From a virus, in UHGV virus genome UHGV-1842250: a stretch of 13,971 nucleotides of DNA; one strand, 5' to 3'. Each line of letters begins with the position of its first letter. Within the stretch, counting starts at the first letter, position 1. The notes beneath the pieces are model-generated. The model was not told the origin of the DNA and searched no databases. It saw nothing but the letters and a program-made list of their open reading frames with translations. A program made the translations under genes and the position numbers. Positions 5,511 to 8,706 of this stretch are shown here, one piece after another.

Positions 5511-5663
5511 TCAGCCCTCCCATATCTCGTTATCGTTGGCTACATCGCGAGCTTCTTTGCTGACGAAAGCCCACTTAATGCCTTCCTGTAAGGTGCGGAA
5601 CTTCCAGCTCATGAATCCGCATGCAGTAACGCAGTACCAACCGTTGATGATTTTCCACTGCAT
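5511..5663 (-). CDS. 50-aa micro-ORF, first gene of the leftward operon, possibly cIII-like
   Basis: Translated by hand as MQWKIINGWYCVTACGFMSWKFRTLQEGIKWAFVSKEARDVANDNEIWEG. It lies about 27 nt downstream of the predicted leftward promoter, has GAGG upstream, and stops 2 nt before the next start. Loose resemblance to lambda CIII (MQYAIAGW..AGC ... RKLRDGWKRLI). Too short for the ORF track. Confidence 0.35.
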   Translation of the reverse strand: MQWKIINGWYCVTACGFMSWKFRTLQEGIKWAFVSKEARDVANDNEIWEG

Positions 5664-5816: not shown

Positions 5817-6401
5817 TTATTGTTTGTTTTTTTCGTTCTGGTTGATGACAAATTCAATGTAACTTTCGATCTTTGCCTTCTCTGTTTCAGGTAACAATGC
5901 GTAGCGCGAGCGGTCATAGTTGATAGTTGCAGGGTCATGCGGATGAATCAGTAGTTCATATCCGTGACGCCCGAATGCAGATGCAACATTCTCCAGGGTG
6001 GAAATGGAAACGCTGACCTCATTGTTTAACAGGCGGCTTATTGTCACCTGGGCGACGCCGGATGCGCGGTGAAGTTTTCCCTGAGTTGAAAGGTCGCGGC
6101 TTTCACTCATCCAGCGTTCCAGGTTGTGAGCTGCCAGCTGACCAATGTCGCTTGGGCCGACAGGCTGAAAACCTTCCTGAGAAAGCGAGCGATCGATATC
6201 AAGCCAGTTACGGGGTTTATTGGCGGCAGCTTCAATTTTTCGCGCAACCTGGTCGCCGATAACTTTCTTGCCAAGAGCCCAGCGGTTTACCAGATTTGCC
6301 TGAGTTCCAAGTTTTTCTGCCATCCGCGTCTGAACACCATTGAATTCACGGTCGATCAAGTCGTTGAGATTTTGCCTGCGGACGTCCTGGATACTTTTCA
6401 T
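5817..6401 (-). CDS. Phage repressor (cI analogue) with two HTH domains and no recognisable LexA/S24 autocleavage domain
   Basis: 194 aa, divergent from the Cro-like gene across an operator-rich spacer. HTH-like segments QTRMAEKLGTQANLVNRW and ASGVAQVTISRLLNNEVSVSISTLENVA. No S24 peptidase serine-lysine dyad or Ala-Gly cleavage context seen. No SD before the ATG, so the transcript may be leaderless. Confidence 0.8.
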   Translation of the reverse strand: MKSIQDVRRQNLNDLIDREFNGVQTRMAEKLGTQANLVNRWALGKKVIGDQVARKIEAAANKPRNWLDIDRSLSQEGFQPVGPSDIGQLAAHNLERWMSESRDLSTQGKLHRASGVAQVTISRLLNNEVSVSISTLENVASAFGRHGYELLIHPHDPATINYDRSRYALLPETEKAKIESYIEFVINQNEKNKQ

Positions 6402-6456: not shown

Positions 6457-6519
6457 TTACCCAACAGGTAAATGCACCTCATAGGTAACTATCCTTGATT
6501 TTTGTTACCTTATGGGTGA
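6457..6519. promoter_or_regulatory. Immunity-region operator cluster of three sites between the repressor and cro-like genes, with divergent promoters
   Basis: Sites at 6457-6471 (TTACCCAACAGGTAA, perfect), 6474-6488 (GCACCTCATAGGTAA) and 6505-6519 (TTACCTTATGGGTGA). Candidate rightward promoter: -35 TTGATT (6494-6499) or TTGTTA (6502-6507), -10 TATTAT (6525-6530), overlapping the third site. Confidence 0.6.
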
Positions 6520-6555
6520 ATATTTATTATCTGAAATAAATATCAGGCAATAGCT

Positions 6556-6786
6556 ATGAGCGATAACGGACATTTCGATTTCAAAAAGCACTGGCTTGCA
6601 CTTACTCCGGATGAGCGTGAAGCCTTCGCACAGGAAGCCGGAACGACGAGTCACTATATCCAGACTCACTTAACAGGTAAGCGCAAAATGCCAGGTAAAG
6701 TATTGATGAATGGGCTTTTTAAAGCCTGTAAAACAAGACAATGGCTGCGCTCAAAAGCAGAACTGGCATACTTCTTCTACTCATGA
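6556..6786 (+). CDS. Cro/CII-like small HTH regulator, first rightward gene
   Basis: 76 aa at the cro position of the divergent immunity cassette, with an HTH-like segment EAFAQEAGTTSHYIQTHLTGKRK. Followed immediately by an intrinsic terminator. Confidence 0.75.
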   Translation: MSDNGHFDFKKHWLALTPDEREAFAQEAGTTSHYIQTHLTGKRKMPGKVLMNGLFKACKTRQWLRSKAELAYFFYS

Positions 6787-6807: not shown

Positions 6808-6830
6808 AGACCGCCACCCGGCGGTCTTTT
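6808..6830 (+). terminator. Rho-independent terminator after the cro-like gene (tR1-like position)
   Basis: Stem AGACCGCC (6808-6815) / GGCGGTCT (6820-6827), loop ACCC, T-tract at 6827-6830. Confidence 0.6.
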
Positions 6831-6856: not shown

Positions 6857-6934
6857 TAAAAAACCAAATATGGTTGATCAAATTTTCCAATTGTGCAAAA
6901 TAGCCAATATCAATAACAAAAAGGGGCGGAAAAA

Positions 6935-7147
6935 TTGAAGATAGTAACCAGAATGGAGGCCGCAAAAGCCGGGTTAAATCGCTATTTCACAGGAAAGCGG
7001 TGCCGTCACGGCCATCTCTCTGAAAGGTATGTTCTGAACGGAACATGTGTTGAATGTGCAATGAATAGCGCCAACCGCCATCGTAATGAATTTGCTTGTG
7101 CACTAAAGAGTGCAAGAGGGGAAACCTATGGCAAGCAGCTGGATTAA
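6935..7147 (+). CDS. Small Zn-ribbon protein (C-x3-H...C-x2-C), function unknown
   Basis: 70 aa from a TTG start at 6935, preceded by AAGGGG; the internal ATG at 6953 has no SD. Motif RCRHGHLSERYVLNGTCVEC. Its end overlaps the start of the O-like gene by 20 nt. Confidence 0.55.
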   Translation: MKIVTRMEAAKAGLNRYFTGKRCRHGHLSERYVLNGTCVECAMNSANRHRNEFACALKSARGETYGKQLD

Positions 7148-7958
7148 GGTTGAAGTTATCACTCCTGATAAACCTGAAATTTTTCAGATAGCAGAAATTC
7201 TGGGTATTGATCCAGATGCTGTTCTTGGAAAGCTGGTTCGTATATGGGCATGGGCTGACCAGCAAACAATAGACGGTAACGCTGGCAGCGTTACAAAAGG
7301 AGTACTTGATAGACTCGCTTTTATTACAGGATTTGCTGACGCCCTCATTAGCGTCGGATGGCTTGCTTATCATGACGGCAAACTAATTCTTCCAAACTTT
7401 GAGCGACATAATGGAGAATCATCGAAAAAACGTGCACTTACGAATAGAAGAGTGGCAGAGCATCGAAAACGAGTAACGCAAAAAGTAACGCCAACAGCGT
7501 TACAAAAGGAGTTACCAGAGGAAGAGGAAGAGGAAGATATATATAAAACCCCACACATAGCGCACGTGCGCGAGGGTGCTCCGACCAGTGAAGCGAACGG
7601 TATGCCGTTGCAGGTGGCTGAACCTGAATTTCTGGATGGCCTGAGTGAACCCATCGGGAAATTTCCGATGACCGATGGCTGGCATCCGTCGCCGGATTTT
7701 CGACGGCGTGCTGCGCTGTGGGGAACGGCCCTGCCGGAACCGGAATTTACACCTGCTGAACTTGCTGCATTCCGGGATTACTGGATGGCTGAGGGCAAAG
7801 TGTTCACGCAGGTTCAGTGGGAACAAAAATTCGCCAGGCACGTAAATCATATCAGGGGAAAATCAAAAAACGCCGGGAAAAGCGATGAGCTTGACTGGAA
7901 TAACACTGACTGGATAGAAGGGGTGTGGGATGAAATCAACTCCAGAACTTCTCAATGA
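7128..7958 (+). CDS. Replication initiator (lambda O analogue) with DnaT-like C-terminal domain
   Basis: ATG at 7128 preceded by SD GAGGGG. C-terminal motif PSPDFRRRAALWG...PEPEFTPAELAAFRDYWMAEGKVFTQVQWEQKFARHV resembles the DnaT/primosomal C-terminal domain. Iteron-like repeats and an AT-rich patch lie inside the gene, and the lambda-P-like gene follows directly. Confidence 0.8.
   Translation: MASSWIKVEVITPDKPEIFQIAEILGIDPDAVLGKLVRIWAWADQQTIDGNAGSVTKGVLDRLAFITGFADALISVGWLAYHDGKLILPNFERHNGESSKKRALTNRRVAEHRKRVTQKVTPTALQKELPEEEEEEDIYKTPHIAHVREGAPTSEANGMPLQVAEPEFLDGLSEPIGKFPMTDGWHPSPDFRRRAALWGTALPEPEFTPAELAAFRDYWMAEGKVFTQVQWEQKFARHVNHIRGKSKNAGKSDELDWNNTDWIEGVWDEINSRTSQ
7276..7548. repeat. Candidate replication origin inside the O-like gene: iterons, 18-bp exact direct repeat, (GAGGAA)x3 and AT-rich patch
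   Basis: GTAACGC at 7276, 7473 and 7485; its inverse GCGTTAC at 7288 and 7497 (12-bp periodicity in the second cluster). CAGCGTTACAAAAGGAGT is repeated exactly at 7286-7303 and 7495-7512 and is read in different codon frames (AGSVTKGV vs PTALQKEL). CATCGAAAA(A)ACG at 7420 and 7461, GAGGAA x3 at 7518-7535, GATATATATAAAA at 7536-7548. Confidence 0.6.
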
Positions 7959-8706
7959 GTACGATCGCTTACGTGAGCATGGTGTTGCTGTGCATGAAGA
8001 GCGGCGTGACAGCAATGGCAAAAAGGAGCAGGTTGCTAGAATTTTCAATGAACTATTTGTCCAGTTACAGGCTGCATTTCCTGCAAGCGTTTCGACCATA
8101 AGGGAGCAGAACAAACTTAATGAATTCCGTAAGCAATGGATGCTTGCGTTTCTGGAGAATGGGATCACAACAATGGAACAGGTTAACGCTGGTATGCGCC
8201 ACGCCCGCGCCAGTGAATCTCCGTTCTGGCCGTCGCCTGGGCAATTCATCAAGTGGTGCAAAGACAGCAAGATGGTTCTTGGCGTCACCATTGACGATGT
8301 GATGGCGGAGTTTCACCGGTACAGCAAGGAAAAAAGTTTATATCCTGGTGGTCCCGAAAGATTCCCGTGGCGACATCCGGTTATGTACTGGGTCGTATGT
8401 GATACCCGCCGTGCAATGTATCAGCGCCAGCTTAGCGAGATTGAGGTTGAGAAACACGCGCGCAGGCTGCTCGATGATTGGGCGAAAAAGGTGGCTTCCG
8501 GACAGCAGATACCCGATCCGGTGATCAGCATACAGGCAAAGCCAGAACCCATGAGTACACCTCCGGACACAGGGAGAGACGTTTACCATCCACCAGGGCG
8601 AAGTTTCGGGTGTATGCCTAACGCCGCCACCCTGGGGGGAATAACACCGGCGCAGTGGCTGATGGAGGAATACAGGCGGGGAAAGGCGGCAGGATTTATC
8701 AAGTAA
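7930..8706 (+). CDS. P: Replication protein P-like DnaB helicase loader
   Basis: Strong resemblance to lambda P over the block VARIFNELFVQLQAAFPAS...FRKQWMLAFLENGITTMEQVNAGMRHAR...PFWPSPGQFIKWC (lambda P has ...ATFPAS...RRQWVLAFRENGITTMEQVNAGMRVAR...PFLPSPGQFVAWC). Start overlaps the end of the O-like gene. Confidence 0.93.
   Translation: MKSTPELLNEYDRLREHGVAVHEERRDSNGKKEQVARIFNELFVQLQAAFPASVSTIREQNKLNEFRKQWMLAFLENGITTMEQVNAGMRHARASESPFWPSPGQFIKWCKDSKMVLGVTIDDVMAEFHRYSKEKSLYPGGPERFPWRHPVMYWVVCDTRRAMYQRQLSEIEVEKHARRLLDDWAKKVASGQQIPDPVISIQAKPEPMSTPPDTGRDVYHPPGRSFGCMPNAATLGGITPAQWLMEEYRRGKAAGFIK

Follow-up and report, generated by a model that had tools for sequence, protein, structure and literature searches.

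A candidate iteron-type replication origin inside the initiator gene of an E. coli prophage

Introduction

In each of the phages lambda, P22, and L, the gene for the replication initiator contains that initiator's own iterons (PMC8022706). In the lambda record, four 18-bp iterons are annotated inside gene O, followed by the purine-rich stretch acaaaagaaaaaagaaaagatta. Here we analyze a candidate origin of this type in the virus genome UHGV-1842250, a stretch of 13,971 nucleotides that we refer to at its full length as the window. Copies of the heptamer GTAACGC and its inverse lie in two clusters, A and B, within the open reading frame (ORF) of a predicted replication initiator; the second cluster is followed by a run of purines and a short AT-rich sequence, the AT patch. 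Comparisons among related loci suggest that the heptamers are the initiator's own iterons and that cluster B, the purine run, and the AT patch together form the replication origin of this prophage, a reading that we consider probable.

As in lambda ori, P22 gene 18, and phage L gene 18, the origin-type array lies inside the coding sequence of the initiator itself. Like its lambda counterpart, it sits at the boundary between an origin-binding N-terminal part and a loader-interacting C-terminal part, it is followed by a purine-rich, AT-rich stretch on the coding strand, and the gene for a P-type helicase loader comes directly downstream. The full site in the window is a 19-bp sequence with dyad symmetry, to be compared with the annotated 18-bp lambda iterons. 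As in lambda, the sequence of the iterons depends on which N-domain is present, and modules recombine at a joint in this region (PMC8022706).

There are also clear differences from lambda. The initiator in the window has no sequence homology to O, and its C-domain is of the DnaT type rather than an O C-domain. Whereas lambda has four tandem palindromic iterons, the sites here are half-sites of 7 nt in steps of 11-12 bp, the first two direct and the next two inverted. A second cluster is found about 190 bp upstream, inside the codons of the DNA-binding domain, and some lineages have a third before the gene. The patch of low stability measures only about 13 bp here, and the whole family of the window's initiator has conserved a purine run of the form (AGAGA)n or (GAGGAA)n.

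Two other groups of described systems invite comparison. DopC, DopE, and their phage ancestors have an N-terminal helix-turn-helix (HTH) domain and a C-terminal DnaT motif, and are followed by a P-like protein (Brezellec et al, 2017, PMC5509034). The window shows the same pairing of a DnaT-type C-domain protein with a downstream partner of the lambda P type. No iterons were found in dopC by these authors, who concluded that dopC is no longer an origin (PMC5509034). In contrast, the putative iterons in the window are intact, and its N-domain belongs to another family than the O/HTH_36-like N-terminus of DopC. The iteron plasmids with Rep or RepA initiators (pPS10, RK2, F) differ in that their iterons are 17-22 bp long, compared with the 7-nt half-sites here, and in that the sites of the window are embedded in coding DNA. 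There are also no DnaA boxes nearby, and replication would depend on a phage helicase loader. A search for TTATNCACA with at most one mismatch gave no match in 7128-7958; a one-mismatch site at 7989 lies outside the element, and the total of DnaA boxes in the window is below chance expectation.

The Rac prophage of E. coli K-12 has an active prophage origin, oriJ, in the corresponding early-right region (PMC3945230), and a record named "Rac" from strain 442/2 carries an initiator of the window's type with GTAACGC arrays. We considered a link to oriJ and rejected it: K-12 YdaU is a DUF1376 protein with an unrelated N-domain, neither BLASTP nor hhalign finds similarity between the initiator N-domain and K-12 YdaU/DUF1376, and GTAACGC occurs 0 times in the 8 kb around K-12 ydaU (NC_000913, 1417000-1425000). 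Because K-12 Rac has a different initiator type, the oriJ literature does not transfer to this locus. The gene name is itself shared by two non-homologous initiators, since ydaU of K-12 Rac (b1359, L112) is unrelated to the "ydaU" of the Rac-like phage record MN652886. In the searchable literature, which is incomplete, we found neither this origin nor iterons of the sequence GTAACGC described.

The heptamers form two clusters within the initiator gene

GTAACGC and its inverse occur in seven exact copies in the window, compared with 1.41 expected, and 0 of 200 shuffled sequences reach seven. Five of these copies lie in the initiator gene, at 7276-7282 (+), 7288-7294 (-), 7473-7479 (+), 7485-7491 (+), and 7497-7503 (-); the remaining two are isolated, at 5626 and 11826. 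The first-pass annotation of this DNA had described the five copies as one array with a spacing of about 12 bp. The five copies are indeed there, but the intervals between them are 12, 185, 12, and 12 bp, so that they form two clusters about 190 bp apart, with a spacing of exactly 12 bp inside each. With a degenerate sixth copy that ends cluster B, the origin-type element spans 7276-7515, all within the initiator ORF (Table 1). This terminal half-site is an exact GCGTTAC in most relatives, and it always ends one base before the purine run.

Degenerate copies elsewhere are uninformative: heptamers with one mismatch number 47 in the whole window, compared with 35 expected, and 9 of 200 shuffles reach 47. 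Since one-mismatch copies are not enriched window-wide, those outside the clusters carry no signal. The window has no other repeat array.

The two clusters have in common an exact 18-bp repeat, the core of a 28-nt repeat (7276-7303 and 7485-7512) with 89% identity. Because the offset of 209 bp is 2 mod 3, the two copies are read in different frames, giving G-N-A-G-S-V-T-K-G-V in the first and V-T-P-T-A-L-Q-K-E-L in the second; the annotation was thus correct that the copies encode different amino acids. It was also correct in placing the repeats, the (GAGGAA)x3 sequence (7518-7535), and the AT patch inside the initiator gene, as all of them fall within the ORF.

Table 1 Features of the candidate origin and of the genes around it.
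Feature	Position	Strand	Remarks
Cluster A, 19-bp palindrome	7276-7294		GTAACGC-TGGCA-GCGTTAC
Cluster B	7473-7515		GTAACGC-aaaaa-GTAACGC-caaca-GCGTTAC-aaaag-GAGTTAC; two direct and two inverted sites
Cluster B, outer direct half-site	7473-7479	+	GTAACGC; intact or degenerate (GAAACGC) in relatives
Cluster B, core 19-bp palindrome	7485-7503		GTAACGC-CAACA-GCGTTAC
Cluster B, terminal half-site	7509-7515	-	GAGTTAC on the + strand; one mismatch
All-purine run, 21 nt	7517-7537	+	AGAGGAAGAGGAAGAGGAAGA; contains (GAGGAA)x3; begins one base after cluster B
AT patch	7536-7548		GATATATATAAAA; proposed first strand-opening site; joint between N-module and C-module
Replication initiator gene, 276 aa	7128-7958	+	PHROG 2509 "replication initiation protein", E = 1.5e-129
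Lambda-P-type helicase loader gene	7930-8706	+	Pfam PF06992, E = 1.7e-55; PHROG 109 "P-like helicase loader"
Small ORF, 70 aa	6935-7147	+	PHROG 1081, function unknown
cro-like gene	6556-6786	+
HTH repressor gene	5817-6401	-

The heptamer sites are conserved as DNA

A comparison with related prophages had been proposed together with the original prediction. About 45 related loci, from Enterobacterales to Planctomycetes and including phages epsilon15, CP2, PAN70, phiPSA1, and Raharianne, share a common layout at the same positions of the gene. A five-way DNA alignment that includes Enterobacter phage BUCT554, a Klebsiella prophage-like phage, and a Rac-like phage shows no change in any heptamer arm, and the 5-nt spacers and neighboring third codon positions vary. 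Indeed, the spacers between these invariant arms differ in nearly every locus.

The density of the motif tells the same story. Among 16 genome loci from Samsonia, Serratia, Rahnella, Pantoea, Pectobacterium, Rouxiella, Yersinia, Erwinia, Mixta, Winslowiella, and Shigella, nucleotides 130-470 of the gene hold 96 heptamers (17.65/kb), compared with 39 in 97 kb of flanking DNA (0.40/kb). The heptamers occupy the same two positions in the gene, with spacings of 12 bp (n = 49) or 23 bp (n = 9). Clusters contain from one to four copies, a number that changes in 11-12-bp steps; cluster A in relatives has one or two extra direct copies, each corresponding to a 12-nt insertion that adds four codons to a loop. 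We considered a chance origin of the heptamers and excluded it on the basis of this density and of the shuffled sequences described above.

We also asked how the motif constrains codon choice, using 25 relatives less than 93% identical and defining a motif codon as one whose third base falls inside a heptamer. The commonest codon has a share of 0.93 at motif codons, compared with 0.60 at 79 conserved background codons (Mann-Whitney p = 0.001).

Finally, the motif is independent of the reading frame. In Rac-like, Planctomycetes, and metagenomic members, translation of the cluster B palindrome gives G-N-A-x-S-V-T; in the window lineage it gives V-T-P-T-A-L. The distance to the terminal half-site differs by 11 bp between these lineages, so that helical phasing is kept and reading frame is not. 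A Planctomycetes chromosome and two metagenomic contigs, with protein identities of 42-62%, retain the exact motif and layout. Rac-like loci carry an extra GTAACGC-N5-GCGTTAC upstream of the initiator start codon (L003, 1150-1227; L006-L021, about -60 to -10). This palindrome lies in non-coding DNA, 15-25 bp before the start codon, and sometimes has direct copies next to it; the window lineage is without it. Frozen synonymous sites, motif density, and frame independence all bear out the earlier proposal that selection acts on the DNA rather than on the protein, and we conclude from these comparisons that the heptamer sites are under DNA-level selection.

Synonymous sites are also conserved outside the clusters, at 7425-7443 (AAAAAACGnGCACTTAC, encoding K-K-R-A-L-T). 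Among Enterobacterales relatives, the Leu codon there is CTT in 100% and the Lys codons are AAA in 96-100%, a conservation that is not kept in more distant members. This may reflect a further DNA-level element or an effect of codon usage.

The heptamer sequence co-varies with the N-domain

In divergent members of the family, a different heptamer is found on every copy and on both arms, and the architecture is retained. The arms read GTTGCGC and GCGCAAC in loci L108 and L022, GTTGCGG and CCGCAAC in L111, GTAGACG(C/G) and GCGTCTAC in L110 and Ralstonia phage Raharianne, GTCCGC and GCGGAC in Salmonella phage epsilon15 and Pseudomonas phage phiPSA1, and GTCAC and GTGAC in a Vibrio phage; GGTAACG and GCGTTAC are retained in Xanthomonas phage CP2 and Pseudomonas phage PAN70. 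Over at least five heptamer classes, the layout is constant: direct copies, inverted copies, a C, AGAG..., and TA-rich DNA.

The encoded loop peptide varies along with the DNA (GNAxSVT, GCAPSAT, GRRLSVS). The motif travels with the N-domain whatever the C-domain, DnaT-type or other, and whatever the partner gene, which in relatives encodes a P-like, DnaC/IstB-like, or DnaB protein. At the level of sequence, the co-varying heptamers and N-domains show the pattern expected if the N-domain reads the heptamer. For mapping the residues that determine specificity, the independent heptamer classes are too few, and they are confounded with phylogeny. The comparative tests, co-variation among them, support the prediction of an initiator-binding element that resembles lambda ori.

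None of the phage records carrying this N-domain has an origin annotation. The circular record of Xanthomonas phage CP2 (L114, NC_020205) starts inside the initiator gene, so that ORF40 spans the start of the record.

A purine run and a short AT patch follow the terminal half-site

The purine run that follows cluster B is the longest run of purines or pyrimidines in the window, and 8 of 500 shuffled sequences reach its length of 21 nt. Of 25 family members examined, 23 have an uninterrupted stretch of 11-29 purines after the last half-site. When these 25 diverse loci are anchored on the purine run, 23 show the same junction, in which the terminal half-site is followed by a C, AGAG(A/G)AAGAG..., and then a TA-rich patch. 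In Raharianne, the purine-anchored scan caught an earlier run, and a separate comparison shows the same layout in this phage. The run encodes EEEEEE in the window and REEKRREE elsewhere; because the peptides differ, the shared property is purine DNA and not protein.

The AT patch that comes next is the least stable of the 13,959 13-mers in the window, as judged by nearest-neighbor energy. Within the gene, the site ranks first in instability at a scale of 20 bp and only seventh at 30 bp. The AT-rich patch that the first-pass annotation saw after the repeats is therefore present, but as a short, sharp patch of 13 bp and not as a long AT-rich region. We rejected broad AT-richness as a feature of the element, given that at a scale of 40 bp the region is not the most AT-rich of the gene and only the short patch stands out.

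The initiator joins a distinct N-domain to a DnaT-type C-domain

The initiator consists of an N-domain (aa 1 to about 120), a disordered linker (aa about 120-178), and a C-domain of the DnaT single-stranded-DNA-binding type (aa 179-249). The C-domain matches the C-domain of DnaT in sequence and fold. In contrast, the N-terminal 125 residues have no match in Pfam or NCBIfam; there is no Pfam O domain (Phage_rep_O), and when the N-domain profile is compared with lambda O by hhalign, the probability is 0.2%. The gene had been called O-like, a name that holds for its position and domain logic and does not hold for its sequence. On the sequence evidence, we regard the initiator as an analogue of lambda O that stands outside the lambda O family.

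An AlphaFold model built with 40 sequences (mean pLDDT, the predicted local distance difference test score, 73.5, and >90 in both domain cores) places four helices and a beta-hairpin in aa 16-87 and a long basic helix in aa 97-119, followed by the linker and the DnaT-type domain. In this model, the N-domain is probably a winged helix. Cluster A encodes a loop on the surface of the modeled N-domain, G50-N-A-G-S-V-T56, between helices 29-46 and 57-64. Cluster B instead sits at the junction of N-domain and linker, encoding aa 116-130, where in the model the basic helix ends and the disordered segment 120-178 begins.

The N-domain family is large and ranges from Enterobacterales to Planctomycetes. 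When each cluster at 50% identity is counted by one representative, E ≤ 1e-3 gives 7,172 members and E ≤ 1e-10 gives 4,831. Since the sites are part of the coding sequence, the DNA motif sets the amino acids at the codons concerned. Among the 145 nearest family representatives, the peptide NA..VT is present in at least one copy in 119 and in at least two copies in 57; this peptide is the protein-level footprint of the GTAACGC palindrome.

The AT patch coincides with a joint between modules

Similarity of the window to BUCT554 and the Klebsiella phage ends at about 7550, and similarity to the C-domain of the initiator of an Actinobacillus phage begins at about 7539. In this phage, vB_Apl-pPE4, the initiator (L119, 341-1465) has an unrelated N-domain and a C-domain 86% identical to that of the window. 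The gene carries repeats of its own, CAGATAA in three copies and CCTAAGGATAAG in two to three. The three CAGATAA copies directly precede the joint GATATATAAACCCCACACATA, which is common to the window initiator, and the C-domains of both initiators are joined at the same ATATATAAACCCCACACATA sequence. The AT patch is a point of module exchange. By analogy with lambda O, the origin region appears to be the site at which N-modules, which would carry origin specificity, and C-modules, which would carry loader specificity, are exchanged.

Weighing the origin against other functions

The heptamer sites exist, are under constraint as DNA, and co-vary with the N-domain. We consider it very likely, from these comparisons, that they are binding sites of the initiator, and likely, with somewhat less confidence, that they constitute a replication origin. 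Several points weigh against this reading. The window lineage has only a single palindrome as cluster A and a degenerate last half-site in cluster B. The AT patch is only 13 bp long, and when the scale is 30-40 bp, other parts of the gene are more AT-rich than this region. A purine run is not in itself easy to melt. Autoregulation might be the only role of the sites, and the searchable, incomplete literature reports neither binding nor replication for any member of the family.

Of the other functions, autoregulation alone is the least improbable. The palindromes would then be operators at which the initiator or another phage regulator represses or roadblocks expression, and the origin would lie elsewhere. 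The palindrome of Rac-like loci, 15-25 bp upstream of the start codon and over the ribosome-binding region, is well placed for such a role, and iteron plasmids use inverted half-iterons for autorepression. Yet the window lineage, without the upstream copy, keeps both intragenic clusters; the invariable junction of half-site, purine run, and TA patch has no obvious role in repression; and the window contains no further repeat array, nor are there DnaA boxes close to the gene. We therefore regard operators alone as unlikely. Autoregulation and origin function are not mutually exclusive, and for the upstream palindrome autoregulation is plausible.

It is also conceivable, though we judge it very improbable, that the palindromes act as hairpins in RNA or single-stranded DNA, as an antisense terminator, an RNA processing site, or a DnaT-linked signal of the primosome-assembly type. 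Each palindrome does fold as a 7-8-bp stem (-7.6 and -8.8 kcal/mol, z about -4.8), the minus strand from 7503 to 7485 scores as terminator-like, and compensatory change from arm to arm would fit a stem too. Against hairpins, direct copies without an inverted partner change along with the palindrome arms, the 11-12-bp phasing is conserved, and copy number changes by whole units; the motif also follows the N-domain and not the DnaT-type C-domain. The unpaired co-varying direct copies and the unit-wise change in copy number favor protein binding on duplex DNA. We rejected a minus-strand terminator at 7503-7485 because its T-run is variable spacer and is not conserved.

Least probable of all, the motif could be a by-product without binding function, either sequence at a module boundary or a peptide repeat (GNAxSVT) that arose by recent duplication or gene conversion: similarity between phages does break exactly at the AT patch, the 28-nt repeat common to both clusters suggests conversion, and NA..VT recurs in most of the nearest family representatives (119 of 145), but invariant arms around locus-variable spacers are unlike recent exchange, and the motif persists in two frames with unrelated translations, in non-coding DNA, across 40-60% protein divergence, and, in different heptamer classes, with the same architecture.

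A model for origin function

If the heptamers are indeed iterons of the initiator, dimers of the N-domain would bind the 19-bp palindromes, whose half-sites are 12 bp apart from center to center, about one helical turn. Further subunits would join at flanking half-sites in 12-bp steps, building a complex on the two direct and two inverted sites of cluster B. Cluster A, 190 bp upstream, may add bound protein that loops to cluster B or autoregulates the gene; the third palindrome just before the start codon in Rac-like relatives may have the same looping or autoregulatory role. The complex would strain the adjoining homopurine run and open the AT patch GATATATATAAAA, the least stable DNA of the region. 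The DnaT-type C-domain might then hold the exposed single strand, dock the P-like loader encoded next door, or both, and the loader would deliver host DnaB.

A more ambitious version of this model, which we put forward only tentatively and regard as doubtful when its parts are taken together, is that of a two- or three-part origin with one binding site written into the surface-loop codons of its own DNA-binding domain. In this version, G-N-A-x-S-V-T would be the shadow of a DNA site and not a functional protein motif, the clusters would be bridged by looping, and the family-wide (AGAGA)n/(GAGGAA)n run would be a new type of strand-opening or single-strand-capture element instead of a passive AT-rich region.

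The principle is classic: an origin inside the initiator gene, with iterons beside an unwinding element, leaves the general picture drawn from lambda unchanged. What is distinctive here is the use of 7-nt half-sites at 11-12-bp steps, two direct and then two inverted, in two or three separate clusters, with one site within the coding sequence of the binding domain itself and a homopurine run found family-wide. The analysis provides a sequence-level origin prediction for a widespread initiator family without a described origin, which includes the cultured phages epsilon15, SPN1S, TL-2011b, vB_EcoP_ZX5, Xanthomonas CP2, Pseudomonas PAN70 and phiPSA1, and Ralstonia Raharianne, as well as common E. 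coli prophages. The heptamer classes are natural specificity variants for studying how an initiator reads its iterons. The locus is also a clean case of DNA-level selection dictating protein, in that a loop and a linker are written by the binding site in two frames. In annotation, the signature of half-site, C, AGAG-purine run, and TA patch could mark phage origins automatically.

The prophage and its neighboring genes

Positions 6900-8000 of the window are 100% identical to many E. coli chromosomes, with matches in 409 of 5,426 complete genomes, and phages TL-2011b, vB_EcoP_ZX5, and HEMP4 are 98-99% identical to the window. By these matches, we assign the window to an E. coli prophage. The loader gene lies directly downstream of the initiator gene and overlaps it by 29 nt.

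On the other side, the small ORF overlaps the start of the initiator gene by 20 nt and sits where relatives have the upstream palindrome. In its product, the Cys/His pattern C-R-H-G-H ... C-V-E-C hints at a zinc ribbon. Just 3' of the cro-like gene and before the small ORF and the initiator gene, a GC-rich hairpin at 6808-6827 (+), AGACCGCC-ACCC-GGCGGTCT, is followed by TTTC and resembles an intrinsic terminator. With the hairpin at this tR1-like position, expression of the replication genes would need read-through or antitermination. Between the repressor and cro-like genes, an inverted repeat with extended arms, GGTAAC-N14-GTTACC (6485-6510), overlaps a promoter-like site of the sigma-70 type at 6502-6530; it is probably an operator and has only GTAAC in common with the iteron.

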